A stretch of DNA of 13,722 nt from a virus (IMGVR_UViG_2778261570_000018:1-13722), one strand, 5' to 3'. Shown: positions 1 through 13,473, counted from the stretch's first letter. The notes: generated by a model from the sequence alone, not told the origin. Program-made: numbers and translations.

Positions 1-215
1 GTGCTGCGGATGATTTCCTGTCGGTGATTAACCCGGAATCGCTGGTGATCAAACAAGGCTTTGCTGAACCGTCGCTGAAAGAAGCGGTAGCGGGTAAAGC
101 ATTCCAGTTTGAGCGTGAAGGTTATTTCTGCCTCGACAGCCGCCATTCTACGGCGGAAAAACCGGTATTTAACCGCACCGTTGGGCTGCGTGATACCTGG
201 GCGAAGTTAGGTTAA
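1..215 (+). CDS. glnS: 3' end of glutaminyl-tRNA synthetase gene (5'-truncated by window edge; reading frame starts at nt 3)
   Basis: Frame is open from the window start to TAA at 213-215. Translation ...[70 protein letters not shown] matches my recollection of the C-terminal region of enterobacterial GlnRS. The listed ORF start at 24 is an internal GTG, not a real start. Confidence 0.7.
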
Positions 216-1842: not shown

Positions 1843-2731
1843 CGCCAATGGCCTCCACCAGCGCGTTAAACAGTGCAGATAATTCGCCCGTAAAGAGCAC
1901 GAAATCAGCATCAAATCGTTGTGCTACATCCTCCCGGTCGATATCGTCGTTCTGGTCATAGAGATCATCACAGAATGTCAGGGCTTTGATACTCATATCA
2001 TCGTTGACTCTGAACGACGCACGGTCCATCCAGTTAATTGCAACGGTCGTAGCTACTTTCCCCGCCTCAATGTGAGACATAATCTCGTCGGACTGTAGAT
2101 CAACTTTGTTGCAGCGAACGGCACCACCATTATCGAGCAGACCCTTTAATGTGGCGTCTTCACCTGCTGTAAATCCGGCAGGGAAGCCGCTTTTAAACCA
2201 CTCGGTCATTGTAATTTCCAGCGGTTCGCGTGGTGTGAATGGAATGACAGGCAGGCTGCCGAGCGACTTTCGCAATAAAGCCAGCTGGTCCTCTGCCTTT
2301 TTGGCGCTGCTTGCCTCAACGAATACCAGATGGTTGCTGCGGTCGATCAGGATTTTGGCGAGTGATTTTCTCGTGAACGCGCGAGGCAAAAGTGAATGCA
2401 GGACTTCATCTTTAAGACTGTCTCTTTCCGTTTTCTTCAGCTTGCGGGCTTGCTCTTCTTCGAGTTTCAGGACTTTTTTCTGCAACTCTTCCTTGAGCAC
2501 CTGCGAGGGGAGAATTTTTTCTTCTCGCTTATGCTGTATTAGCAGAAAACCCTGGTATTCATGGGTGAGGTTGTCACCAAGAACAGGTGTCCAACCGACT
2601 TTAGCTGTGTCCTGAGAACCGCAAGGAGTAAACACGAATTTGCTAAGAGCATCGGATACTTCTGCGGCACTCCAGTTAACTTCACGTGAAAGACGATAGA
2701 TGAAGATGTTTTTGAAAGCGACTGATCTCAT
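1826..2731 (-). CDS. rdgC: RdgC-like recombination-associated DNA-binding protein (extra, island-borne copy)
   Basis: 301 aa, ATG at 2731. Collinear similarity to E. coli RdgC as I recall it ([83 protein letters not shown]-terminal GGEA.R). Confidence 0.85.
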
Positions 2732-2737
2732 GTTTCA

Positions 2738-2781
2738 CCAATTGTGTTAGAAAATTCTATTCAATTATCTAACACAATTGG
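2738..2781. promoter_or_regulatory. Perfect 13-bp inverted repeat with 18-bp AT-rich spacer in the spike-rdgC intergenic region (candidate operator)
   Basis: ccaattgtgttag (2738-2750) and ctaacacaattgg (2769-2781) are exact reverse complements. They lie between the spike-like gene stop (2791) and the rdgC start (2731). No U-tract follows on the transcribed strand, so a terminator is unlikely. Confidence 0.4.
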
Positions 2782-2790
2782 ATGTGTTTT

Positions 2791-3444
2791 CTATCCCTTC
2801 TTGAAATCAAAGTTGCTTGCGATAGCCTGGAAGGTGCCTCCAGCCTTGAAATCAATATTTTCGTCGGCTGTCACAGTAATGTTTTTGCCATTAACGCTGA
2901 TGTTATCGGCTGATTTGACGTTAACACTCCCTCCCGCATTCACTACTACATCAGCCGGACCAATGATGTATATCTGCCCTGATTCATTCATTCCAATCCT
3001 TGAGCCTGCTGCCGTATTCGCTATTTCATATCCACCGCCAGCCGTTCGCACTTCGAGCACATTGTTGCGGTGAATCACGAAATCTTTTGTCGCCGAAAAT
3101 TGCGGGCGGGGAGGCGCTCCGTCTACTTCTGGTGGCGTCCAGCCGCTACCATTGCCTGACGCCTCCGGCGCGACGTTTGGTACTCCGCCAGGCGCATCCT
3201 GAGCTGCGCCAACTATCATTGGGCGTCTGGTATCAATTCGACCATTAACATCCAGATAAGGAAACTCTACCCATACCAGGTCGCCTTTTACTGTAGGTAC
3301 AAAAGCGTTTCCGATGGGTAACAGGTATTCCGCCCAGGGTAGATCGTCATCAGGAACGCCATTCCAGTCAGGTAAAACACGGACTTGAGCACGCATAAGC
3401 CCTGCCGGGTGCACAGTTCCAACAATTTGCGCTCTACGCTTCAT
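2791..3444 (-). CDS. Phage baseplate spike protein, gpV/gp5-like (N-terminal OB-fold plus C-terminal beta-helix-like repeats)
   Basis: N-terminus GLMRAQVRVLPDWNGVPDDDLPWAEYLLPIGNAFVPTVKGDLVWVEFPYLDVNGRIDTRRPMIVGA fits the gpV/gp5/VgrG OB-fold pattern. C-terminus has G/N/V-rich repeats (VVVNAGGSVNVKSADNISVNGKNITVTADENIDFKAGG). The ATG overlaps the upstream stop as ATGA. Confidence 0.55.
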   Translation of the reverse strand: MKRRAQIVGTVHPAGLMRAQVRVLPDWNGVPDDDLPWAEYLLPIGNAFVPTVKGDLVWVEFPYLDVNGRIDTRRPMIVGAAQDAPGGVPNVAPEASGNGSGWTPPEVDGAPPRPQFSATKDFVIHRNNVLEVRTAGGGYEIANTAAGSRIGMNESGQIYIIGPADVVVNAGGSVNVKSADNISVNGKNITVTADENIDFKAGGTFQAIASNFDFKKG

Positions 3445-4421
3445 TTGTTCGGCACTCCCAATATCATTCGTGTTGTGTAGCCTACGCGGTCTTCAAAGTG
3501 CGCAACATTTTTTACTATCAGCTTACGGGGCATTGATTCATCAATGCGGTTTTCCTGGTCATAGCGGTATACGATAATCTCTATCACCATTCCCGGTTTT
3601 ATATCAGGATTGCCTGCGACTTCTATATCCATTTTGGGGACGAGAGACAGCTGCATATTGCGAAGAGTTTCCATATCAGAGTCGGATATATAACGCACTG
3701 GGAGTGAGCTATCGCCATATTCGACGTAGCCATCGGTCATGGAATACCCAACAAAACGATATTGATTCTTTGCTGTTGTCGCATGTTCCTGTTGGAGTAG
3801 GCGCATTTTGGACAAAGTGTATTCTGCTTTAGGGTTATTCCCCTCGTAGGTAAATGATGGCGTTTGCTTCATCAGATCAGCCAGGGTGTAAAAGTTAAAT
3901 TCCCCCCGGCATACCCAACATAATGCACCTTTGTCTCGCGCTATCTCCGAAAGCATTTTTGACGGTTTGTCACCGGCATTCAGATGATATGTAACTGCGC
4001 GTTTTAGCACGCTGCTGGTAATTTTAAGTTTGCCGGAATATGCCTTGAATATAGCGTCTGGTGTTTTGTTGGTATGTAAATTTGTGCGCGGGGAGGGGAT
4101 CTTAAACCTGCGCACGTCTTCACTGACAGCAATAACGGTAACAACATCACCAGCCAGCATTGCAGACGTAACAAAGAAATCTGTTTTAAAAGTGCCTGCA
4201 TTACCGTTTGGATCGCCCATTTCAGCCACCAGCGATGCACCGTATTTGGCTTTCCAGTCATCAATTACGGTGCCGGTAGCGTCATGAATTTCCAGTTTTA
4301 GCAAAGGGGCTTTGAGGCTGGTTTTTTCTACATATACTGCGGTAAAAATCCAGTCTCGTGGCACTTTGTTATCGTTAATGAGCACTGACTGTAGAAAATA
4401 TTGTTGTAACTCCTGGGCCAC
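3441..4421 (-). CDS. Hypothetical protein, 326 aa, in the tail/baseplate-like operon (possible hub-type protein; function not established)
   Basis: Long ORF with GTG start at 4421, 3 nt after the upstream stop, preceded by GGGGTGA. Its stop overlaps the spike gene start (ATGA). No family motif recognised with confidence. Confidence 0.55.
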   Translation of the reverse strand: MAQELQQYFLQSVLINDNKVPRDWIFTAVYVEKTSLKAPLLKLEIHDATGTVIDDWKAKYGASLVAEMGDPNGNAGTFKTDFFVTSAMLAGDVVTVIAVSEDVRRFKIPSPRTNLHTNKTPDAIFKAYSGKLKITSSVLKRAVTYHLNAGDKPSKMLSEIARDKGALCWVCRGEFNFYTLADLMKQTPSFTYEGNNPKAEYTLSKMRLLQQEHATTAKNQYRFVGYSMTDGYVEYGDSSLPVRYISDSDMETLRNMQLSLVPKMDIEVAGNPDIKPGMVIEIIVYRYDQENRIDESMPRKLIVKNVAHFEDRVGYTTRMILGVPNK

Positions 4422-4424
4422 TTA

Positions 4425-5192
4425 TCACCCCATAGATATCGAGGTTTCGGTAATAATACGTTTTGCGTCCAACTCCCATGCTGTGATCACGTCTGCAATC
4501 ACACTTATCGGCGCTTGTGTGGCATAAATACGCTCTTCTCCAATTGGTGCTGAAACATCCGTAAAGCCGACTTCTTTGGCATCCTGTATCGAGCAAATCA
4601 ACGGGACCGGGACACGAACAAGGTGAGTGGTGGCTTCAAATTGTGTACCTGTCATCAGGCGAAGCCGTGCGCCCAGCGAATTACACATCAGACTCATGGT
4701 CGCTTTATCAGTTGCCATTAACGTAACGTCATACGTCAGAATGGCCTGGGTGTATTCCAGTTCTGCTAAAGGCATTCCGGTATCCGGTTCGCAAAAACTG
4801 GCTACTTTTTTGCGGTCAATCTGCTGATCATCGTTGATATAATTGATATCCATAGTGCGTGAGATATTGACCAGGGGGAGAGCATCCCGGTTAATGTTCT
4901 GGTTTTCAGGTTTTCTCCCTTGCCCGGCATTTGCGCGACGAACTGCTTTAAGAAACTCGATCGCATTGTCGAAACGGGCCACATAGACACGCTCTGCTGG
5001 TGGACGATTCAGGAATGACGCAAAGCGTTTTTCTTCCGGCGCGGGGGCCACCAGTAAGATATCAGAAAAAATGTTGCTGATTAGCGTCGCAAACGCGTTA
5101 TCCACGTTTTCAAAGCCCGTGGTCTGGAATTTTCCTGTGCGTGAGGTTTGCCATTCACCTGTTCGCGCCAGGAGGGTTTTATTTGAAGTCAT
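4425..5192 (-). CDS. Hypothetical protein, 255 aa, in the tail/baseplate-like operon
   Basis: ATG at 5192 overlaps the upstream stop (ATGA). Uninterrupted ORF with position in a tightly coupled operon. No recognisable motif. Confidence 0.55.
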   Translation of the reverse strand: MTSNKTLLARTGEWQTSRTGKFQTTGFENVDNAFATLISNIFSDILLVAPAPEEKRFASFLNRPPAERVYVARFDNAIEFLKAVRRANAGQGRKPENQNINRDALPLVNISRTMDINYINDDQQIDRKKVASFCEPDTGMPLAELEYTQAILTYDVTLMATDKATMSLMCNSLGARLRLMTGTQFEATTHLVRVPVPLICSIQDAKEVGFTDVSAPIGEERIYATQAPISVIADVITAWELDAKRIITETSISMG

Positions 5193-5980
5193 TCGATCAC
5201 TCCGTTTTGAGTCGTATCAAAATTCCTGGCAGGTATGCAGTAGTAAAGCGAACCAACATGTTGTGTGCCGTAGCTAAAAATACGGTGCACGTACCACCAG
5301 CGGCGGGCTACGCCGTTTACCATCTCTTCATTCCATTCAAGAATTGATCCGACGGGGACTTTATTTGCTGCAATACGCAGAATCAGAACATCATCGGTTA
5401 AGCCATCCTGCTCACCGTCTGCGTCAATCGCATGGAAAGAGTCACGCCCGTCCGGGTTATCCAGCACATAAACGATTTCAGGTTCCTGGTAAGTCAGTTC
5501 GCGCTGGTTGTTATCCAGTTCAGTGAATGACTCTTCTCCTGTTTCGTCGCTGACTACCCCATATGTGCCAACATCTGGTCGATATAAGAGAGCCTGAAAC
5601 GCGTCTGGGCTGGATTCAATAATCAGCATCCAGTCTGCGCGGATTTGGTCGTTAAAGGCTTTATGCCCGTTATAGCGTGCTTTTAACTGTGGAGTCGGTT
5701 CTCTGCCAGCCAGGGAAGATGGAAGTATGGCTATATCTGATTCGCCAGCATCCGGAGTAAGGCCACCGTTGCTATCAGCAAAATTATCATGGCTATCAGC
5801 TTTGGCGGCGGGTTGCTCTTCCAGAATGCTGAATGAATCCGAACCGGTATTGCCATGTTCCGGCGCGCCTCCTGCATTCGCTTCAATCGGCGCTGGCGTT
5901 TCTCTCTGCGTGCTGTCATGTTCTGACTCCTTACTTGCCAGGTTTGCATCGTCAGCAAACCATTCGTCAAAACGGCCCAT
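5189..5980 (-). CDS. Hypothetical acidic protein, about 263 aa, first gene of the tail/baseplate-like operon (start ATG 5980; ORF-track TTG 5992 unlikely)
   Basis: GAGG sits 6 nt upstream of ATG 5980. The N-terminal half or so is D/E/S/G-rich low complexity; the C-terminal part appears globular (WWYVHRIFSYG...). Confidence 0.55.
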   Translation of the reverse strand: MGRFDEWFADDANLASKESEHDSTQRETPAPIEANAGGAPEHGNTGSDSFSILEEQPAAKADSHDNFADSNGGLTPDAGESDIAILPSSLAGREPTPQLKARYNGHKAFNDQIRADWMLIIESSPDAFQALLYRPDVGTYGVVSDETGEESFTELDNNQRELTYQEPEIVYVLDNPDGRDSFHAIDADGEQDGLTDDVLILRIAANKVPVGSILEWNEEMVNGVARRWWYVHRIFSYGTQHVGSLYYCIPARNFDTTQNGVIE

Positions 5981-6074
5981 AAGCATCCTCAAAGGTCGAT
6001 CTGTCAGGTATCGAAAGGAAGATTTTCGGGAGATTGTGATTTTGGATGAAGGAGGGGGAATTCATAAAATGCAC

Positions 6075-6103
6075 TTGCGCACAGTGCAACGGTGCGCTAT
6101 AGT
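6075..6103 (+). promoter_or_regulatory. Candidate sigma70 promoter of higBA-1 with an operator-like inverted repeat in the spacer
   Basis: TTGCGC (6075-6080), 17-bp spacer, TATAGT (6098-6103). Inverted repeat gcgcac (6077-6082) / gtgcgc (6092-6097) sits between the -35 and -10, a typical autorepression layout. GGAGG at 6126-6130 precedes ATG 6143. Confidence 0.4.
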
Positions 6104-6142
6104 TATGGCATTCAGTAATCCTCACGGAGGATCAAATGGCTA

Positions 6143-6445
6143 ATGACCAAAAAAATTAACATAAAGGATTTCAGGGATGCGTGGCTTGATGATTTTTTTG
6201 AATTTTCAACACCACATAGAAAGATACCTCCTGATATTCATATGACATTGTCACGGAAGTTGGACATTATCAATGCCGCAACTACCTGTAATGATTTAAG
6301 ATCACCACCAGGTAATCGGTATGAGGAACTGTCAGGGAAGCTAAATGGCTATTCATCAGTAAGGGTGAATAAGCAATATAGGTTAATTTTTAAGTGGGTT
6401 AACGGAAAGGCCGAGGACTTGTATCTCGACCCTCACAAATACTAA
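6143..6445 (+). CDS. higB: HigB-family toxin (Rts1 HigB / killer-protein type, RelE/ParE superfamily)
   Basis: 100 aa. C-terminal pattern EELSGKLNGYSSVRVNKQYRLIFKWVNGKAEDLYLDPHKY parallels Rts1 HigB (...LKGDREGYWSITVRANWRITFQFINGD..L..EDYH as recalled). Toxin-first gene order with a downstream HTH antitoxin. Confidence 0.8.
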   Translation: MTKKINIKDFRDAWLDDFFEFSTPHRKIPPDIHMTLSRKLDIINAATTCNDLRSPPGNRYEELSGKLNGYSSVRVNKQYRLIFKWVNGKAEDLYLDPHKY

Positions 6446-6515
6446 AACAGATACCCGGTTACGAACCGGGTTCTGACCAGAGTCCACTTAATACGCACGC
6501 TAGTAAGGGCAAAAA

Positions 6516-6854
6516 ATGAAACAGGCAACCAGAAAACCGACGACCGTAGGTGATATCCTGCTGTACGAATACCTGGAGCCGTTAGAGCTGAAGATCAACG
6601 AGTTAGCAGAAATACTTCATGTTCATCGTAACACCGTAAGTGCTCTTGTTAATAATAATCGTAAGCTAACGATGGATATGGCATATCGCCTGGCAAAAGC
6701 ATTCGATACTTCTGTAGATTTTTGGATTAATCTTCAGACCGCAGTAGATCTGTGGGAAGTCGAAAATGATATGCGCGTTCAGGAAGAGTTAAGTCGTATC
6801 AATACTGCTGAAAAATTTATTTCTCAGCGGAACCTGAATAAAAAAGCAGCCTGA
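6516..6854 (+). CDS. higA: HigA-family antitoxin (XRE-type HTH, addiction-module antidote)
   Basis: 112 aa. GDILLYEYLEPLELKINELAEILHVHRNTVSALVNNNRKLTMDMAYRLAKAFDTSVDFWINLQ matches the HigA antidote HTH pattern. TAAGGG is 6 nt upstream of ATG 6516. Confidence 0.8.
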   Translation: MKQATRKPTTVGDILLYEYLEPLELKINELAEILHVHRNTVSALVNNNRKLTMDMAYRLAKAFDTSVDFWINLQTAVDLWEVENDMRVQEELSRINTAEKFISQRNLNKKAA

Positions 6855-6873
6855 TATAGTAAAACACATACAA

Positions 6874-6905
6874 AAAGCCCACTTAGCAAGTGGGCTTTCC
6901 TTTGT
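6874..6905 (+). terminator. Intrinsic terminator after higBA-1
   Basis: Stem aaagcccact (6874-6883), loop tagca, stem agtgggcttt (6889-6898), then cctttgtaatt. Confidence 0.55.
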
Positions 6906-6910
6906 AATTA

Positions 6911-7270
6911 ATGAACATTAAACCCATCCGTACAGAACAAGATTATGAGGCCGCACTGCGTGCGGTCGAACCGATGTTCGATAACGAACCGGAAATGAAT
7001 ACTCCGGAAGGTGATTTCTTTGAGGTTATGAGTCTTCTCATTGAGGAGTACGAGAAAAAACATTACCCAATTGAGCCACCATCACCTATTGAGGCCATTA
7101 AATTCCGTATGGAACAGCAAGGGCTGACCGTGAAGGATCTGGAACCGGCAATTGGTAAGTCAAACCGTGTTTACGAAGTGCTTAATGGGACACGAAATTT
7201 GACGTTACCTATGATTCGTCGTTTACATGCCCAGTTTGGTATTCCACTGGAAAGCCTGGTTGGCGTTTGA
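6911..7270 (+). CDS. Stand-alone HigA-like antitoxin/regulator of the E. coli YgjM (K-12 HigA) type, C-terminal HTH
   Basis: 119 aa. C-terminal GLTVKDLEPAIGKSNRVYEVLNGTRNLTLPMIRRLHAQFGIPLESL parallels K-12 HigA (GLTLSDLPEIGSKSMVSRVLSGKRKLTLEHAKKLATRFGISPALF as recalled). N-terminal EQDYEAALRAVEPMF parallels EEQYTQALELVDHLL. No cognate toxin gene is adjacent. Confidence 0.7.
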   Translation: MNIKPIRTEQDYEAALRAVEPMFDNEPEMNTPEGDFFEVMSLLIEEYEKKHYPIEPPSPIEAIKFRMEQQGLTVKDLEPAIGKSNRVYEVLNGTRNLTLPMIRRLHAQFGIPLESLVGV

Positions 7271-7275
7271 GTTTT

Positions 7276-7299
7276 GCGGTCTGGATGACCGCTGTTTTT
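7276..7299 (+). terminator. Intrinsic terminator after the HigA-like gene
   Basis: Stem gcggtc (7276-7281), loop tggat, stem gaccgc (7287-7292), then tgttttt. Confidence 0.55.
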
Positions 7300-7333
7300 A
7301 TAAAAAATAGATACTAGAAATTTGGTAGCATAT

Positions 7334-8113
7334 ATGAGTACAGATTCATCAGTAAAGAAGACATCTGAATCAGATAAAGAAAATGAGTCCGTTGTTGATT
7401 CCGTCAAGAATACAATGGAATATGTTATAAAAGACAAAGTATTTAATAAGCTTTTTGCATATATTTTTATATCTTTTCTGGTTGTTAACTGGAGAGATAT
7501 ATTAATTTTGTTCAAATCAAAAGAAGATGTTCTATATACTCTGTCAATAGTTTTTACCGGTGAAAAAATACAATTTCTTGATGGCGAGATTTTACCTCCT
7601 TGGTTTGCCCACTTTTTCTTGCCGTTTTTCTATGGTGTGATTGCGTCGATTGTGGCACCAGTAATTACACTTGCGGTATCTTGCATTACAACTAAGGTGT
7701 ACTATAAAATAAAAATTTTGGACAATAAAACAGACGAAAACGAGAAAGAGAAATTAGCAAAAAGAGCCAAGAAAAGAGCTGAGCGTGAAATAGAGGCTAG
7801 CTATAGCCAACAAAAGCTGGATGAAAGAAAAAAAGAACTGGAAGACATTTTAAACAAAATAGAAGATGAAAAAGAAAAATATGATAAAATGAAAGAAAGG
7901 TTTGATGATGCCATAACGCTTACATATAAAAATATTCACATTTTGCCTACTCTGTATGAGAATAGGAAATGTAAAATTGAAACTCCGCAGGATTTATATG
8001 ATTTTATTGCAGCAATAAAGAAAACATCATTCTATAGTACTGATTTTAATGAATTGTTCTCTGATATTTCTCGATTGTATTCTGAAATGCAAACTGATTT
8101 ATCAGAAAAGTGA
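7334..8113 (+). CDS. Hypothetical membrane protein with two predicted TM helices and a long charged coiled-coil segment (AT-rich, likely foreign gene)
   Basis: 259 aa from ATG 7334 (the ORF-track start at 7322 is TTG). Hydrophobic segments LFAYIFISFLVVNW and FFLPFFYGVIASIVAPVITLAVSCI, then a K/E-rich heptad-like stretch (NEKEKLAKRAKKRAEREIEASYSQQKLDERKKELEDILNKIEDEKEKYDKMKERF). Coding region is visibly AT-rich compared with its flanks. Confidence 0.6.
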   Translation: MSTDSSVKKTSESDKENESVVDSVKNTMEYVIKDKVFNKLFAYIFISFLVVNWRDILILFKSKEDVLYTLSIVFTGEKIQFLDGEILPPWFAHFFLPFFYGVIASIVAPVITLAVSCITTKVYYKIKILDNKTDENEKEKLAKRAKKRAEREIEASYSQQKLDERKKELEDILNKIEDEKEKYDKMKERFDDAITLTYKNIHILPTLYENRKCKIETPQDLYDFIAAIKKTSFYSTDFNELFSDISRLYSEMQTDLSEK

Positions 8114-8114
8114 A

Positions 8115-8137
8115 AGCCTGGCATAGACCACCAGGCT
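8115..8137. terminator. Hairpin between convergent genes (weak candidate bidirectional terminator)
   Basis: Stem agcctgg (8115-8121), 9-nt loop, stem ccaggct (8131-8137). No tight U-tract on either strand. Confidence 0.3.
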
Positions 8138-8148
8138 ATATGTGTGGT

Positions 8149-9342
8149 TTATGCTTTTTTTACATACGCCATAAACATTTTTTCAGCATGTTCTTGTGGC
8201 GTTCCTGCCATGACAAGCGCATCAATGAACGCCTGCTTCTTCAGTGCGAACTGATCGGCCAGGCGTTGCTGAAGCTCCTTGTTTTTCTGTTTCTCACGTT
8301 GCAACGCCGCTTCTTTTGCTGCCGCCCGTTTTTTCTGTGCGTCTGACAACTTTCTGGCCTTGGTCAGTTGGTCACGTAGCTTGTCAATCTTGCCGTTGTC
8401 CTTTGCCAGTTTTGTGCTTAAAGCGGCCTGGCGCTTCTGATAGAGCCTCCATTCTCGCTTGGCAGCGTCAACGTTCGTTTTACTGCTACGATTGCGATTA
8501 AACTCCTTCTCGTCTTCTTTTGAGAAGTGTTTGGTTGTACGGCGGCGATCGTCACCAAATGCAATTTGCGTTGCAGCCTTTTGTAGCGCACGAGCAATAC
8601 TCATTTGCCAACTGGCGGACTGTAACCGCGTCATTGAGTGGATCACGTGTTTACAGGCGACGCCTTGCAGCTTCGGGTTGCGAACTTTTGGATAGGCGTA
8701 TTCTTTTGGCGGTGCCAGGGCAAAGTTACCCGCAGTGGCGATGTAACGATACCAGTATTGATGACGACCACAGTCACAATCGAAAGACACTCGCCCGGCG
8801 CACAGTGATTTAGTGATTTTGAGAGCTGATTTATCGTCTTCTGCGATGTCATCAACCATCTGATCCCATTCTTCAAAGCGTATCCGGACGATATGGTGCT
8901 GGTGGACGGATATATCCGATGCTTCTACGCGGATATTAATCACATTGTGGCGAAGAGATACGGGTGTAGCTCTTTTGATACCAGATCCGTCATCCACGGC
9001 GTTATTTGCACGCTTAATATCGATAGCCTGGCTGGATGCCACCAGCTGGGCGTATGTGATGCCAGCCGTCTTGCTGTCATATTTTTCGCGCGTTTTACTC
9101 CGTAGCTTTTCGAAGCCTTTCAGATCGTCTCGCGTAAAGAACGTGCCGCCTTTTTTCTTCCCTAACTTGAGAATATCTTCGACGGATTTGTTCCTAAGTC
9201 TGCCTGGCGTCAGCGTCCGGTGAGCTTGTCGGCGCTTACGGGTTTGTTCTTTCCTGATAAGGTCGAATAAACGCGTGAAGTCCTTAGAGGACAGACCGTC
9301 AGTGATATAGCGCCCGTCCTGGTTTTTCAGGAAATCAGGCAT
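8149..9342 (-). CDS. Hypothetical basic protein, 397 aa, with central Cys/His cluster and C-terminal coiled coil (possible nucleic-acid-binding zinc-finger protein)
   Basis: ATG at 9342 with GGAG 7 nt upstream, overlapping the upstream gene stop by 8 nt (ATGCCTGA). K/R-rich N-terminus, CAGRVSFDCDCGRHQYWYRY...GVACKHVIH cluster, and a K/Q/A/E-rich C-terminal region of roughly 100 aa. Confidence 0.6.
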   Translation of the reverse strand: MPDFLKNQDGRYITDGLSSKDFTRLFDLIRKEQTRKRRQAHRTLTPGRLRNKSVEDILKLGKKKGGTFFTRDDLKGFEKLRSKTREKYDSKTAGITYAQLVASSQAIDIKRANNAVDDGSGIKRATPVSLRHNVINIRVEASDISVHQHHIVRIRFEEWDQMVDDIAEDDKSALKITKSLCAGRVSFDCDCGRHQYWYRYIATAGNFALAPPKEYAYPKVRNPKLQGVACKHVIHSMTRLQSASWQMSIARALQKAATQIAFGDDRRRTTKHFSKEDEKEFNRNRSSKTNVDAAKREWRLYQKRQAALSTKLAKDNGKIDKLRDQLTKARKLSDAQKKRAAAKEAALQREKQKNKELQQRLADQFALKKQAFIDALVMAGTPQEHAEKMFMAYVKKA

Positions 9343-9664
9343 TTTCTATCTCCGGTTCCGCGCTCGCGTAATCACGGATCTTGTTCCTCAGCCATGCCAC
9401 ATCAGGAAGAGTTAACGTGGTCCCGGCGGGCATTTCTTCCATTTCTGACTCATGGCCCACCAGCACCCGGAATACCCAGCGCAAATCTGCATTGCCATAC
9501 GCCCTGTAGGCTGCAAGGTCTGAACGATATACTTCATCAATCTTTATCGTGTACTGGAAATTATCAGAGTGATACTCCGATACCCGCTTAATCATTTCCT
9601 GGTGAAACAGCGCACGAAAAATATCGTCTTCAATGTACCTATCGTCGAGTCTGCTATAGCCCAT
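9335..9664 (-). CDS. Small protein with LysM-like / phage tail protein X (gpX)-like C-terminal region
   Basis: 109 aa, ATG at 9664 with GAGGGG 7 nt upstream. YTIKIDEVYRSDLAAYRAYGNADLRWVFRVLVGHE..EMPAGTTLTLPDV resembles the P2 gpX pattern (GDTLDAICVRYYGR...VLAANPGLA...LPHGTAVELPDV as recalled). Assignment is tentative. Confidence 0.4.
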   Translation of the reverse strand: MGYSRLDDRYIEDDIFRALFHQEMIKRVSEYHSDNFQYTIKIDEVYRSDLAAYRAYGNADLRWVFRVLVGHESEMEEMPAGTTLTLPDVAWLRNKIRDYASAEPEIENA

Positions 9665-9725
9665 AACAAAGCCCCTCAGTCATAACCTGGGGGAAACTGT
9701 ATGTAGGGTGTGAAATGCGAGAAAG

Positions 9726-9756: not shown

Positions 9757-10038
9757 TTATGCGTGGAAAAATAATGGACGGATGTTTGGGCGAGCGGTTT
9801 GCGAAGCAACCCAAAGCTCATACTGAGATTGCATACCGGTCCACATTTCGGCACTGGTTCCAAGAGCGGACTCCAGACGAAGTGCCATATCAGCAGAAAT
9901 GCCTGCTTTTTCGTTCAGAATTCGGGAAAGTGCCGTGCGAGTAATGCCTAATGCAGCAGCGGCGTCTGTGACTGACATGTCTCCCAAATATTCACGAAGA
10001 ACCGCGCCAGGATGCGCGGGATTATGCATACGACTCAT
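9757..10038 (-). CDS. higA: HigA-family antitoxin (XRE-type HTH), second module
   Basis: [72 protein letters not shown] parallels Rts1 HigA (HPGE...SRLL..K......[21 protein letters not shown] as recalled). ATG 10038 is preferred, with GAGGAA overlapping the higB-2 stop; the ORF-track start at 10050 is TTG. Confidence 0.8.
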
Positions 10039-10046
10039 AGTGTTCC

Positions 10047-10328
10047 TCAATGATAATCCTGATAGTCAACTAGAATTGCGTCTTCTCCTTCAAATCGGAA
10101 GGTAAGTCGCCAGTTACCGTTTACCGATATTGCCCAGTGACCTTTAAGGTCCGCCCCCTTTAGAGGGTGCAATTCCCATCCAGGCGCAGACATATCGTCC
10201 GGGCGTTTAGCTGTATTAAGAGCAGTCAATTGAATGCGTAGCTTAACCGCATGTTTGGCCTGAATGCCTGCGGTTGAACCTGTCTTGAAAAAGCGTTCAA
10301 GCCCTTTATGGCGAAATGACTTAATCAA
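10047..10328 (-). CDS. higB: HigB-family toxin (Rts1 HigB type), second module; likely TTG start at 10328
   Basis: Translation from TTG 10328 gives [18 protein letters not shown]...[43 protein letters not shown], closely paralleling Rts1 HigB (MIKSFKHKGLKLLFEKG...HPLKGDREGYWSITVRANWRITFQFINGDAYILNYEDYH as recalled). GGATGG lies 7 nt upstream. The ORF-track start at 10391 adds a non-conserved 21-aa extension. Confidence 0.8.
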
Positions 10329-10354
10329 AATAATTCCATCCGTGCGCGTAACCT

Positions 10355-10391
10355 GTGTATATACACTACACGCAGAGGGAGCGAAATGCAA
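10355..10391 (-). promoter_or_regulatory. Candidate higBA-2 promoter with a 12-bp perfect palindrome operator
   Basis: On the minus strand: TTGCAT (plus 10386-10391), 17-bp spacer, TAGTGT (plus 10363-10368). Perfect palindrome GTGTATATACAC (10355-10366) overlaps the -10 and predicted transcription start. Confidence 0.4.
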
Positions 10392-10664: not shown

Positions 10665-11318
10665 TCAAAGTATCACGGTATCTTCATCAACTTCTTTCCC
10701 AGCCAGTGACTTTGGCTGGGAACTGCCTGCTTTAACTTTTTCATGCCCAATAATGGAAAGGAACGAAGTGAGTATGCCTGTTTTTTGCTCTTTCTCGACT
10801 GTACCGGTCATCTGCTCTACGTAATCCGCACTGGCAACGTTGTGGTATACGGTCGCGTAGCAACACAGGATCATCAGAATATGCTCCGGCCTGATATCCT
10901 GCCAGTTCACCCTGTAGACTTCTTCTCCGTTACCGTTGTATTCGGTATCAACGATAGAGTCGGGGATTTCGAAAGCACCTTTGTTATTTTGCGGCAGGGA
11001 TAATAGCTTCTGGAGTTTTAACTCTCTGTATCTTTCCATCCCGACGATGATTGCTGCTCTGCCATCGGCATGACGGGTCTTGAGAGTCACCTGGCTTGCT
11101 CCGGTGCCAGCGGAGATCGTTGGCGTAATTTCGTCTACCAGTACCTTAAATTTGCTTTTCCGCAGGGCTGCTATAGCTGGAGGAATTTTTTGCTTTTGCT
11201 CCAATGCTGACGCGGGAAGGGGTTTTACTTCGTTAATAATGAGAGCACCGTCTTTCAGTATTGCAGTGAGCATTTGAGGCTTGCTGGTGGTCAGGCTGAA
11301 TATTGCGATCTTTTCCAT
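10665..11318 (-). CDS. Hypothetical protein, about 217 aa, unknown function (start ATG 11318)
   Basis: ORF with GGAGAAAGGA immediately upstream of ATG 11318. The ORF-track N-terminal extension to 11360 runs into the terminator hairpin and is not credible. No family recognised. Confidence 0.55.
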   Translation of the reverse strand: MEKIAIFSLTTSKPQMLTAILKDGALIINEVKPLPASALEQKQKIPPAIAALRKSKFKVLVDEITPTISAGTGASQVTLKTRHADGRAAIIVGMERYRELKLQKLLSLPQNNKGAFEIPDSIVDTEYNGNGEEVYRVNWQDIRPEHILMILCCYATVYHNVASADYVEQMTGTVEKEQKTGILTSFLSIIGHEKVKAGSSQPKSLAGKEVDEDTVIL

Positions 11319-11344
11319 TGTCCTTTCTCCACGGATGACGGATA

Positions 11345-11370
11345 CAAAAAAAGGCCGCACATGGCGGCCT
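11345..11370 (-). terminator. Canonical rho-independent terminator on the minus strand, immediately upstream of the RBS of the 217-aa gene
   Basis: Minus-strand RNA: stem aggccgc, loop caugu, stem gcggccu, then seven U (plus 11352-11370 hairpin, A-run 11346-11352). Lies about 25 nt upstream of ATG 11318. Confidence 0.65.
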
Positions 11371-13086: not shown

Positions 13087-13124
13087 AAAGCAGGCTTAAC
13101 GACTAAGCCTGCTTTTTGAATTTT
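13087..13124 (+). terminator. Intrinsic terminator after the secreted-protein operon (also abuts the stop of the convergent membrane-protein gene)
   Basis: 11-bp perfect stem aaagcaggctt (13087-13097) / aagcctgcttt (13105-13115), 7-nt loop, then tttttgaatttt. Confidence 0.6.
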
Positions 13125-13473
13125 ACTCGGTAATAGTTTTGCAGTTGTTTTGGTTTAAGACCAATCCAAGTTTGCTGGCGGCCAACTCATTTTCTGTGTG
13201 AGAGCCAGCAAATACAAATCCTTGTTTTATCTTATTTACGGTGAAATATTTATTGTATATAAATGCCCAGACAAGTGAAGCTACCCAAGGACCAATTCCT
13301 GCAGTGAGGAATGCCAGGATTAGCATCACAACGAACACCCCGATGAAAGTTATAAAGTCTTTCCTGAACAAAGCCGGGAAGGCACCAAAAAAGAACGTAG
13401 TCCAGGAGAATCCATAAAAGCCTGAGATGGACTCGCCTGTCCGAGGATTTTCTAAGTTAATTTTAGTAGCCAA
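13123..13473 (-). CDS. Small inner-membrane protein (116 aa, two predicted TM segments), TTG start
   Basis: Hydrophobic stretches FYGFSWTTFFFGAFPALF and FIGVFVVMLILAFLTAGIGPWVASLVWAFIY. AAAGGA is 9 nt upstream of TTG 13473. No in-frame ATG is available near the N-terminus. Confidence 0.55.
   Translation of the reverse strand: MATKINLENPRTGESISGFYGFSWTTFFFGAFPALFRKDFITFIGVFVVMLILAFLTAGIGPWVASLVWAFIYNKYFTVNKIKQGFVFAGSHTENELAASKLGLVLNQNNCKTITE

Follow-up and report, generated by a model that had tools for sequence, protein, structure and literature searches.

A four-gene viral locus that very probably represents the late operon 7-24-6-5 of a D6-like, P1-family phage-plasmid

The operon in phages P1 and D6

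When considered from the point of view of gene order, the closest described systems are the late operons of phages P1 and D6. In P1, genes 26-25-7-24-6-5 are contiguous (NC_005856, 73704-78455) and served by the promoter LP26, and a CRISPRi knockdown screen scored genes 5, 6, 24 and 7 as essential, with the caveat, given in the same paper, that polarity complicates such calls. In the virion, P1 gp7 forms a hexamer that has the adaptor PmgC above it and the tail terminator as its docking partner (PMC12810830), and gp24 is this tail terminator, which closes off both the tube and the last ring of the sheath (PMC10304247). P1 Gp6 is described as the hub in structure 9vzk (PMC12810830), its HHpred matches to T4 gp27 and Mu gp44 standing at 99% (PMC9024508), and gp5 has no lysozyme domain (PMC9024508, PMC12810830); the muralytic activity of P1 belongs to Sit, its tape-measure protein (PMC9024508). 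The P1 papers (PMC12810830, PMC9024508) assign the same architectural roles and folds to T4 gp5-gp27, gp15 and gp14/gp13, although identity to the T4 proteins is only about 10% in our fold-search alignments and the T4 genes are not clustered in this way. In Escherichia phage D6, the corresponding genes are orf69-orf66 (NC_050154 / MF356679, 64162-67351), which the annotation labels "similar to P1 gene 7/24/6/5". The operon is already known: the D6 annotation includes it, and for the P1 genes there are a genetic map, a knockdown screen that scored them essential and cryo-EM placements of the products.

Organization and identity of the locus

The stretch of DNA analysed here, hereafter the window, comprises 13,722 nt and carries four coupled minus-strand genes between 5980 and 2791, with the spike gene in last position (Table 1). 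ATGA overlaps connect genes 7 and 24 (5192-5189) and genes 6 and 5 (3444-3441), while the 3-nt gap between genes 24 and 6 (4424-4422) is TAA, itself a second stop codon; the ORF coordinates thus bear out the coupled layout described in a first-pass annotation of this DNA. PHROG E-values of 6e-116, 4e-113, 3e-144 and 8e-42 for the four proteins are so low that the genes must be real and not chance ORFs. In Pfam, the three upstream proteins had no match, and the spike had nothing beyond a sub-threshold one to DUF2345.

The region is 96.8% identical to D6 at the nucleotide level over 3.4 kb, and the four proteins are 92-100% identical to their D6 counterparts (100% for gp24 and gp6; 98.5%, with 4 substitutions, for gp7). 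BLASTP identity to P1 amounts to 46% for gp5, 38% from end to end for gp6, 22% for gp24 and 45% over 158 aa for gp7. Every one of the four proteins matched a P1 cryo-EM chain in a PDB sequence search, including the three upstream proteins that had previously been deemed unrecognisable, which matched the gp7, gp24 and gp6 chains. The order 7, 24, 6, 5, the orientation and the tight coupling are the same in the window and in the P1 and D6 annotations. We are highly confident that the four genes constitute the operon 7-24-6-5, a late morphogenetic unit, in a D6-like plasmid prophage (phage-plasmid) that belongs to the P1 family and resides in Enterobacteriaceae. Homology, synteny, the replicon context of relatives, the intactness of the window genes and purifying selection are direct observations; the virion location and stoichiometry of the four products would be those of P1 by analogy. 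These locations are carried over from P1 proteins of only 22-46% identity.

Table 1. Coordinates of the operon, its signals and its neighbours in the window.
Feature	Position	Strand	Remarks
Gene 5 homologue (D6 orf66)	2791..3444	-	217 aa
Gene 6 homologue (D6 orf67)	3441..4421	-	326 aa, GTG start
Gene 24 homologue (D6 orf68)	4425..5192	-	255 aa
Gene 7 homologue (D6 orf69)	5189..5980	-	263 aa, ATG at 5980
Parts of the gp7 homologue			N-terminal MGRFDEWF motif; disordered acidic linker, residues ~9-81; conserved C-terminal helix and beta-sandwich
49-nt palindrome	2736..2784		in the interval from the gene 5 stop codon to rdgC; ATTGTGTTAGAWAATT present twice, in inverted orientation
Candidate late promoter	6022..6042	-	~40-60 nt upstream of ATG 5980
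Cargo block	6143..8113	+	between genes 26-25 and 7-24-6-5
Gene 25 homologue	8149-9342	-	PHROG match
Gene 26 homologue, baseplate plug	9335-9664	-	PHROG; PDB 9ay5_S/9vzk, E 1e-16
mat homologue	10665-11360	-	same strand as the four-gene operon

The four predicted products

Sequence and model both predict that the first product is gp7, the hexameric neck "stopper" or head-completion protein. Its residues 96-256 match P1 Gp7 (PDB 9ums_B, E 4.8e-42), and a fold search with the AF2 model returned the same chain (E 4.4e-14), together with weaker matches to the stopper of phage 812 (probability 0.97, E 0.07) and to the T4 neck complex (probability 0.97, E 0.014-0.026). This stopper match is confined to the C-terminal ~170 residues. 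The N-terminus is of a different nature, as residues 1-95 contain 20 D/E versus 5 K/R and 52 of the 95 are G, S, P, A, N, Q or T, in agreement with the acidic, low-complexity character noted earlier for the first protein. In 35 full-length homologues, selected from the 73 found, an MGRFDEWF-type motif is followed by an acidic, hypervariable, disordered linker of 60-130 residues, and the acidic N-terminus is a disordered linker common to the whole gp7 family.

The N-terminal part of gp7 is the one feature that the P1 structures leave unexplained: the 9ums model covers 158 of the 242 P1 gp7 residues and lacks the N-terminal part. Six polyanionic gp7 tethers at the head-tail junction could gate or plug the neck channel by mimicking DNA or, alternatively, could recruit another virion or anti-defence component. 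That the tethers have such a separate role is, in our estimate, rather unlikely, as is a second and minor proposal, namely that the D6 lineage, through the evolution of a late promoter dedicated to gene 7, has made the junction of genes 25 and 7 a hotspot for toxin-antitoxin or defence cargo.

The second product is likewise predicted, by sequence and model, to be gp24, the hexameric tail terminator. The match to P1 Gp24 (PDB 8jan_y) has an E-value of 1.6e-14 with the single sequence and of 3.2e-33 with a 21-sequence profile. The AF2 model (pLDDT 77) aligns with P1 8jan_A (E 5.9e-20, TM 0.74), and the next matches are T4 gp15 terminator chains (~2e-6), accompanied by T5 p142, Sf14, Bas63 and CIS caps. 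Fold searches with the gp7 and gp24 models gave meaningful scores for neck and terminator proteins only.

The third product is, judging from its homologues, gp6, a trimeric baseplate hub of the gp27/Mu gp44 type, with residues 6-325 matching P1 Gp6 (PDB 9vzk_1, E 7.6e-72). A hub had been among the families suggested for comparison, and this suggestion held for gp6; the Dit and ejection-protein families, suggested alongside it, found no match among the four proteins in Pfam, PHROGs or PDB sequence matches. Proteins of this kind frequently carry the RefSeq label of tape measure, an assignment that we reject for the gp6 homologue on the grounds of its length, 326 aa, and its hub homology. For P1, it has been argued that gp6 is too short for a tape measure and that Sit (1140 aa) has this function (PMC9024508); in D6, the sit homologue spans 3,783 nt in another part of the genome.

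Finally, the last product is predicted to be gp5, a lysozyme-less trimeric central spike in which an OB-fold is followed by a beta-helix. The earlier proposal of a gp5/gpV-type spike is upheld by the match of residues 2-202 to P1 Gp5 (PDB 9vzk_q, E 5.4e-54) and by that to PHROG 430, "baseplate hub subunit and tail lysozyme" (7.5e-42). The C-terminal sequence appears to contain short V/I-x-V-x repeats, which are typical of beta-helices. No lysozyme or other enzymatic domain was detected in the 217 residues with Pfam or PHROGs, whereas T4 gp5 has 575 aa and includes a lysozyme domain. The P1 spike is capped by the PAAR protein UpfC, and the UpfC gene lies outside the window. Unlike the rest of the operon, the spacer ahead of rdgC and the last two-thirds of the spike gene represent a different allele from that of D6: nucleotide identity is 81-87% across 2732-3300 and >99% elsewhere, with a breakpoint near 3300.

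Replicon context and alternative readings

The first-pass annotation regarded the four genes as an isolated tail-tip operon, either a prophage remnant or a spike module retained for a non-virion function. It was correct that no capsid, terminase, sheath, tube or tape-measure gene is present in the window, as ORF, Pfam and PHROG searches agree. However, the locus is not isolated, given that homologues of genes 25, 26 and mat lie on the same strand within the window. Its apparent isolation arises because the P1 family scatters its virion genes over many operons of a ~90-kb genome, because the window, at only ~14 kb, represents about 15% of that genome, and because a toxin-antitoxin cargo insertion parts the four genes from 26 and 25. 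In the 91-kb genome of D6, terminase, portal, capsid, tube, tape-measure (sit), wedge and fibre genes as well as lpa are found elsewhere, in an inventory that covers ~98% of the genome, shows the P1-type set of head, tail, lysis, immunity and partition genes and leaves the sheath gene in the remaining 2-kb stretch. A complete prophage continuing beyond the window, which the first-pass annotation itself held to tell against its reading, was found in each of the close relatives inspected. A survey of 5,426 complete E. coli genomes located the four-gene block in 97 of them, at 98 places in total, all 98 on plasmids and none chromosomal; a further 119 carriers are PLSDB plasmids from Escherichia, Salmonella and Shigella, and the carrier records listed are mostly about 87-98 kb long. 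The exact spike protein is encoded on contigs of 89-93 kb with the same layout and with par genes, PAAR and upfB nearby.

Could the genes nevertheless be still-intact relics of a defective D6-like element that is unable to form virions? Some carriers do show damage: pAPEC201603 has a gene 24 broken into two ORFs, and its dam, ref and rha have become pseudogenes. Some carrier plasmids also depart from 90 kb (59.5, 74.5, 80 and 129 kb). The intactness of the present copy, moreover, is known for its window part only. Within this part, however, all ten D6-homologous genes are full length and the promoter motifs are intact, and the gp24 and gp6 proteins are those of a viable phage, D6, without a single difference. 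Further evidence comes from the divergent 3' part of the spike gene, which has 87% nucleotide identity to the D6 allele and differs from it by 57 synonymous-only codons and 17 amino-acid-changing ones, the changes falling at residues 88-210. The resulting dN/dS of 0.06 means that the spike gene is under strong purifying selection and is not decaying. A remnant is very unlikely.

A non-virion role, be it as a tailocin, as a fragment of a T6SS-like or extracellular contractile injection system or as a domesticated puncturing device, draws on the fact that spike and hub folds are common to T6SS VgrG and contractile injection systems, and on weak matches of the spike to DUF2345 (E 0.0055) and to the CIS spike chains 7b5h and 7aef. 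The DUF2345 match scores 17 bits, though, below the gathering cut-off of 30.7, and two of the four products serve to join head and tail and would be useless without a capsid. The absence of the block from the chromosomes of the 5,426 complete E. coli genomes and the same P1/D6-type neighbourhood in D6 and the five contigs examined leave the non-virion proposal without support and with a negligible probability; a T6SS, tailocin or extracellular injection-system origin was rejected on this genomic context. The notion of a pure tail-tip operon, in which the three upstream proteins (Dit, hub, ejection) assemble around the spike, has in its favour that the genes adjoin the spike gene and are translationally coupled to it, that gp6 is truly a hub and that legacy annotations term gp24 "baseplate". 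Spike and hub do fit this description, but gp7 and gp24 are head-proximal: the gp24 homologue has a tail-terminator fold shared with P1 8jan, T4 gp15 and cap proteins, the gp7 homologue has its counterpart in the P1 connector stopper 9ums_B, with fainter similarity to the stopper of phage 812 and to T4 neck proteins, and cryo-EM places the P1 proteins accordingly (PMC12810830, PMC10304247). A purely tail-tip operon is hence extremely improbable.

Returning to the reading as a P1-type late operon, its products would supply both tail-assembly starters (hub and spike) and finishers or head joiners (terminator and stopper). Late expression would proceed from the candidate promoter at 6022-6042, presumably activated by the Lpa homologue of the element, with translation coupled through the ATGA overlaps. 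The gp7 hexamer would close the portal-adaptor complex of the DNA-filled head and present a docking surface for the tail, contacting the gp24 hexamer, which would cap the tail tube and the top sheath ring. At the opposite end, the gp6 trimer would turn the six-fold tube into three-fold symmetry and nucleate the baseplate, and the gp5 trimer under the hub, sharpened by a PAAR protein encoded elsewhere, would be driven through the outer membrane by sheath contraction.

All this carries little weight as a discovery, and its practical value is corrective. A short window on a P1-type genome can give the false impression of an "orphan spike module", and wrong legacy labels are automatically propagated, such as "tail length tape measure protein" for the hub, "baseplate" for the terminator, "tail stability" for the stopper and "carbohydrate-binding domain protein" for the spike.

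Upstream cargo and regulatory signals

The genes 26 and 25 homologues (8149..9664), located 2.2 kb upstream of the operon, matched PHROG 1269 and 1722, the gp25 homologue having no PDB match. Between them and gene 7, the cargo block encodes a HigB-like toxin, a HigA-like antitoxin, a second HTH protein and a 263-aa protein (Pfam, PADLOC), the last of these in DNA of ~33% G+C. Relatives have alternative cargo in the same position; this toxin-antitoxin cargo slot is variable and splits the P1-type six-gene operon. In contrast to P1, ~2.2 kb of opposite-strand cargo separates 26-25 from 7-24-6-5, gene 7 has its own copy of a late-promoter-like motif, and the downstream neighbour is rdgC/hrdC instead of dbn-ban. 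D6 shares the gene order, lengths and overlaps, the RdgC and methylase genes downstream and a HigBA-type cargo upstream, but the window has an extra HigBA pair at 9757-10391.

The candidate late promoter of gene 7 reads AAATCACAATCT-CCC-GAAAAT, that is, a box, a 3-nt spacer and a -10-like hexamer with A2 and T6. The underlying motif, A[AT][AT]T[CA]ACANN[CG]T-N3-nAnnnT, was found de novo and has 12 sites in 77 kb of D6 versus 0.23 expected, each directly ahead of a late or morphogenetic unit, an enrichment that is partly circular because the D6 upstream regions used for the count had also served to derive the motif. The window contains three sites versus 0.07 expected, among them 6022-6042 and 9696-9716, the latter ahead of gene 26. 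Where relatives have other cargo upstream, homology picks up again exactly at the 6022-6042 motif. D6 encodes an Lpa homologue, and the 6022-6042 motif is a candidate Lpa-dependent promoter. The annotated -22 box of P1 LP26 (AAATGACTA-N4-TAGAAT) has no convincing match upstream of gene 7 or gene 26, and the D6-type motif has none in the 12.5-kb P1 locus, so that the link to Lpa is one that we only infer.

At the other end of the operon, the palindrome upstream of rdgC folds into a predicted hairpin (-22.7 kcal/mol, z -5.9) and resembles the P1 C1 operator ATTGCACTAATAATTTT, and related sites occur in D6 near c1, lpa, ref, pmgR/S and rdgC. A sigma-70-like TAGAAA-18-GATAAT is found at 2793-2764. 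The palindrome, which delimits the late operon on its 3' side, is probably a bivalent C1-type operator that overlaps the promoter from which the downstream rdgC-methylase unit would be transcribed. The late-promoter motif and the variable cargo slot are small additions which, like the C1-operator-like palindrome, may already stand in P1 or D6 genome papers; motif and slot may aid the annotation of D6-like phage-plasmids, present in ~2% of complete E. coli genomes. A generic scan of 2600-6500 for sigma-70 promoters and terminators returned sites not above those in shuffles. The "terminator" predicted at 6088-6070, upstream of gene 7, has nothing to terminate and may instead be an operator of the divergent higBA promoter.

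Identity and layout of the block

The four minus-strand genes are the counterparts of P1 genes 7, 24, 6 and 5. Their closest known entity is orf69-66 of Escherichia phage D6, a P1-related plasmid prophage, followed by the P1 26-25-7-24-6-5 operon; the operon is already known, and no new kind of system is present. Read directly in the sequence, two of the junctions are ATGA overlaps (5192-5189 and 3444-3441) and the third, between the gene 24 and gene 6 homologues, is a 3-nt TAA spacer (4424-4422), in agreement with the four-gene structure described in the first-pass annotation. The first ATG is preceded at 8 nt by the Shine-Dalgarno sequence GAGGA. All four ORFs are real genes: tail/baseplate families of PHROG match them with E values of 6e-116, 4e-113, 3e-144 and 8e-42 (gene order 7-24-6-5). 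The Pfam search returned no family for the homologues of genes 7, 24 and 6 and only a sub-threshold DUF2345 match for the spike homologue, which explains why a reader unaided by databases was unable to place the proteins.

Features of the window and closest P1 structures
Feature	Position	Strand	Remarks	P1 match (PDB chain; E)	Identity to P1
Gene 7 homologue	5189-5980	-	263 aa from ATG at 5980; extended to TTG at 5992 in the mechanical ORF list	Gp7 (9ums_B; 4.8e-42), residues 96-256 only	45% over 158 aa
Gene 24 homologue	4425-5192	-	255 aa	Gp24 (8jan_y; 1.6e-14)	22%
Gene 6 homologue	3441-4421	-	326 aa, GTG start	Gp6 (9vzk_1; 7.6e-72)	38%
Gene 5 homologue (spike)	2791-3444	-	217 aa	Gp5 (9vzk_q; 5.4e-54)	46%
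Gene 25 homologue	8149-9342	-	P1 morphogenesis gene, 2.2 kb upstream of the block
Gene 26 homologue	9335-9664	-	P1 morphogenesis gene, 2.2 kb upstream of the block
mat homologue	10665-11360		maturation-control gene
Candidate late-promoter motif	6042-6022	-	before gene 7 homologue
Candidate late-promoter motif	9716-9696	-	before gene 26 homologue
Candidate late-promoter motif	11475-11455	-	before mat
Palindrome	2736-2784		49 nt, 3' of spike gene
Cargo slot	6143-8113	+	between gene 25 and gene 7
Second HigB-like/HTH antitoxin pair	9757-10391	-	between gene 26 promoter region and mat
glnS fragment	24-215	+	3' end of phage-borne glutaminyl-tRNA synthetase gene (D6 orf62)
ORFs of 238, 273 and 116 aa	11500-13081; 13123-13473	+; -	three proteins

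The two weakest assignments, those of the gp24 and gp7 homologues, were followed up with profiles and AlphaFold2 models. With a 21-sequence profile the Gp24 match of the former improved to E 3.2e-33, and its model (pLDDT 77) was closest to the P1 terminator (8jan_A, E 5.9e-20, TM 0.74), followed by T4 gp15 chains (about 2e-6). Further down came Sf14, Bas63, T5 and contractile injection systems with their terminator or cap proteins. For the gp7 homologue, modelled from 36 sequences, the P1 connector chain 9ums_B was the sole significant match (E 4.4e-14), with weaker matches to the phage 812 stopper and the T4 neck complex.

By cryo-EM, P1 gp7 is a hexameric stopper lying under the adaptor PmgC and docking a loop onto the tail terminator, itself a hexamer of gp24; the hub is a trimer of gp6, and the spike a trimer of gp5 that lacks a lysozyme domain and carries the PAAR cap UpfC (PMC12810830, PMC10304247). 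Earlier HHpred and proteomics had reached the same roles for gp6, gp24 and gp5, and the same work gave reasons against gp6 being the tape measure (PMC9024508); all four P1 genes were scored essential by CRISPRi, although, as noted in that study, knockdown polarity complicates such calls (PMC10695390). Since hub and spike belong to the tip whereas terminator and stopper are head-proximal, the operon is not a tail-tip module. The "tail-tip operon" proposed from the sequence therefore holds for the hub and the spike, the latter correctly recognized as a spike-type protein given its match to the P1 Gp5 chain, and is contradicted for the terminator and the stopper by the P1 structure matches and fold searches. 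The automatic RefSeq names of relatives are inconsistent and partly wrong, with the hub called "tail length tape measure protein", the terminator "baseplate" and the spike "carbohydrate-binding domain-containing protein", and many copies are merely "hypothetical protein".

The homologue of gene 25 has 397 residues. By eye, its sequence shows a C-x-C...C-x-H pattern (FDCDCGRH...GVACKH) reminiscent of a SWIM zinc finger and, behind it, a long tail of charged residues that looks like a coiled coil; Pfam did not find the SWIM family in this protein, and the PDB search yielded no solved-structure relative. The P1 cryo-EM paper never names gp25 in its main text.

The acidic N-terminus of gp7

Residues 1-95 of the gp7 homologue include 20 D/E versus 5 K/R, with small or polar residues making up 52 of the 95; the acidic N-terminus claimed for the first protein is real. 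P1 gp7 is likewise acidic (24 D/E and no K/R in residues 1-77), and the first residues are alike (MAGFFDDMFED in P1, MGRFDEWFADD in the window). Across 35 full-length homologues, selected out of 73 found, an N-terminal motif and the C-terminal ~170 residues are conserved; the 60-130 residues next to the motif are hypervariable, both in their sequence and in their number, yet consistently acidic and Ser/Thr/Pro-rich. In the model of the window protein pLDDT falls below 50 over residues 9-81, and in the deposited P1 gp7 chain 158 of 242 residues are present, all of them aligning to the C-terminal part of this model. By its hypervariability, its low pLDDT and its absence from the P1 chain, the region is a disordered linker, and it is a trait of the gp7 family. 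Existing work, that on P1 included, accounts for all of the finding except the function of this linker.

Genomic context and distribution

The 3.4-kb region is 96.8% identical to D6 at the nucleotide level, ungapped, and the circular D6 genome (91,159 bp) annotates the four genes, orf69 to orf66, as "similar to P1 gene 7, 24, 6, 5". The layout around the block is identical in both, with RdgC/hrdC, two methyltransferase ORFs and the phage-borne glnS downstream; in the upstream direction come a HigB/HigA-like pair, genes 25 and 26, and finally mat. As the first-pass annotation stated, no capsid, terminase, sheath, tube or tape-measure genes were found within the window. The stretches of D6 examined for gene content (1-50,000 and 52,071-79,471) contain c1, pacA/pacB and lpa; prt, pro, darA, hdf, darB and lydA/B; cin with the S/U/R fibre genes; 16, bplA and pmgA; sit, pmgB, tub, pmgC, bplB, pmgG, 21 and 23; and upfB with the PAAR gene upfC. 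The sheath gene 22 is probably located outside these stretches, at 50-52 kb.

At least 80% of the length of the window is matched by 33 E. coli plasmids, those listed being mostly ~90-98 kb in size. Among 5,426 complete E. coli genomes, 97 carry the four-gene block itself, at 98 sites in total, every one of them plasmid-borne and none chromosomal; the block is also present in 119 PLSDB plasmids (from Escherichia in 97 cases, Salmonella in 16 and Shigella in 6), and a protein identical to the spike of the window is encoded on contigs of 89-93 kb with a matching neighbourhood. The D6 gene set, the plasmid-only occurrence and these contigs indicate that a complete prophage extends beyond the stretch covered by the window in every close relative examined. 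The gene structure had been read correctly and the isolation of the module inferred mistakenly.

Matches to the window in 5,425 of the 5,426 E. coli genomes, mostly at 95-99% identity, are due to the glnS fragment. In one relative (locus L007, 13230-20607, on the 822-kb draft contig of GCA_900604155.1) the glnS of the element is fragmented into three ORFs and continues directly into chromosomal nagE, nagB, nagA and nagC. This junction reflects either homologous recombination at glnS that integrated the phage-plasmid or a chimeric assembly at the gene that both share.

Intactness of the block and the spike allele

The gp24 and gp6 homologues are identical to the D6 proteins, and the gp7 homologue differs at 4 residues. 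The spike gene has a recombination or mosaic breakpoint near 3300, with a D6-identical 5' part, whereas 2732-3300, comprising its 3' part and the spacer before rdgC, is 81-87% identical to D6 versus >99% elsewhere. In this 3' part 57 codons differ synonymously and 17 change the amino acid (dN/dS 0.06), all 17 changes lying within residues 88-210, which we take to be the beta-helix part; plasmid NZ_CP047663 carries the same spike allele as the window (99.3% over the block). The block is not decaying, and the suggestion of a prophage remnant is at odds with both the D6-identical proteins and the dN/dS of the spike. It is possible that this copy carries a defect elsewhere on its element, as some relatives are damaged: in plasmid pAPEC201603 (locus L002) the gene 24 homologue is split at 7425-8191 into two ORFs of 429 and 321 nt and several further genes are flagged as pseudogenes, so that some D6-like plasmids are probably defective prophages. 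Nothing of this kind is indicated here, however.

When compared with P1, the window differs in that its proteins are only 22-46% identical, its operon is split by cargo and an extra late-promoter-like site is found at gene 7; when compared with D6, it differs in the C-terminal allele of the spike and in an additional HigBA pair.

Candidate regulatory sites

In the P1 annotation, 26-25-7-24-6-5 form a single late operon behind promoter LP26. In D6 and the window, genes 26-25 and 7-24-6-5 are ~2.2 kb apart with opposite-strand cargo between them, and LP26 therefore cannot simply serve both halves. Comparison of the regions upstream of the D6 morphogenetic, lysis and dar units revealed a common motif, AAATCACA-NN-CT-N3-(T/C/G)ANNNT, with 12 sites in the 77 kb of D6 scanned versus 0.23 expected, a count that is partly circular because the pattern derives from some of the counted regions. 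The sites lie directly upstream of darB, the lysozyme-like orf16, prt, ddrB, lydA, R, pmgB/sit, 23, upfC, 7, 26 and mat, and none was found elsewhere in the scanned 77 kb; the window has 3 sites versus 0.07 expected. In three relatives with wholly different cargo 5' of gene 7 (loci L006, L007 and L009), homology to the window restarts exactly at AAATCACAATCT, which supports the motif independently. D6 encodes an Lpa homologue. Since the -22 box annotated for P1 LP26 is not matched by the motif, the site before gene 7 is put forward as a candidate Lpa-dependent late promoter by inference.

The palindrome 3' of the spike gene (fold -22.7 kcal/mol, z -5.9) consists of two inverted half-sites, ATTGTGTTAGAWAATT, that resemble the P1 C1 operator, and similar sites in D6 adjoin c1, lpa, ref, pmgR/S and rdgC. 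The palindrome is probably a D6-type C1 operator; we read it as serving the unit that follows (rdgC with the methylases) as operator and promoter, so that it would mark the 3' boundary of the late operon.

Cargo and other neighbours

Cargo varies among relatives in the slot that separates gene 25 from gene 7. In the window and D6 this slot holds a HigB-like protein (PF05015), HigA, an HTH protein of 119 aa matching positions 1-119 of 402 of PADLOC PD-Lambda-2_B (E 3.8e-43), and a protein of 263 aa that has a coiled-coil-like region and is encoded by DNA of ~33% G+C; in other relatives (loci L005-L009, ~5584-7319) it holds a different HigB_toxin (PF09907) and a 119-aa partner. The second HigB-like/HTH antitoxin pair is also present in pAPEC201603, whereas D6 lacks it and has two tiny ORFs there instead. 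Finally, the ORFs of 238, 273 and 116 aa occupy the position of the simB-like region of D6 with different content; no Pfam or PADLOC family was found for them, and the first two have N-termini that by eye resemble signal peptides.
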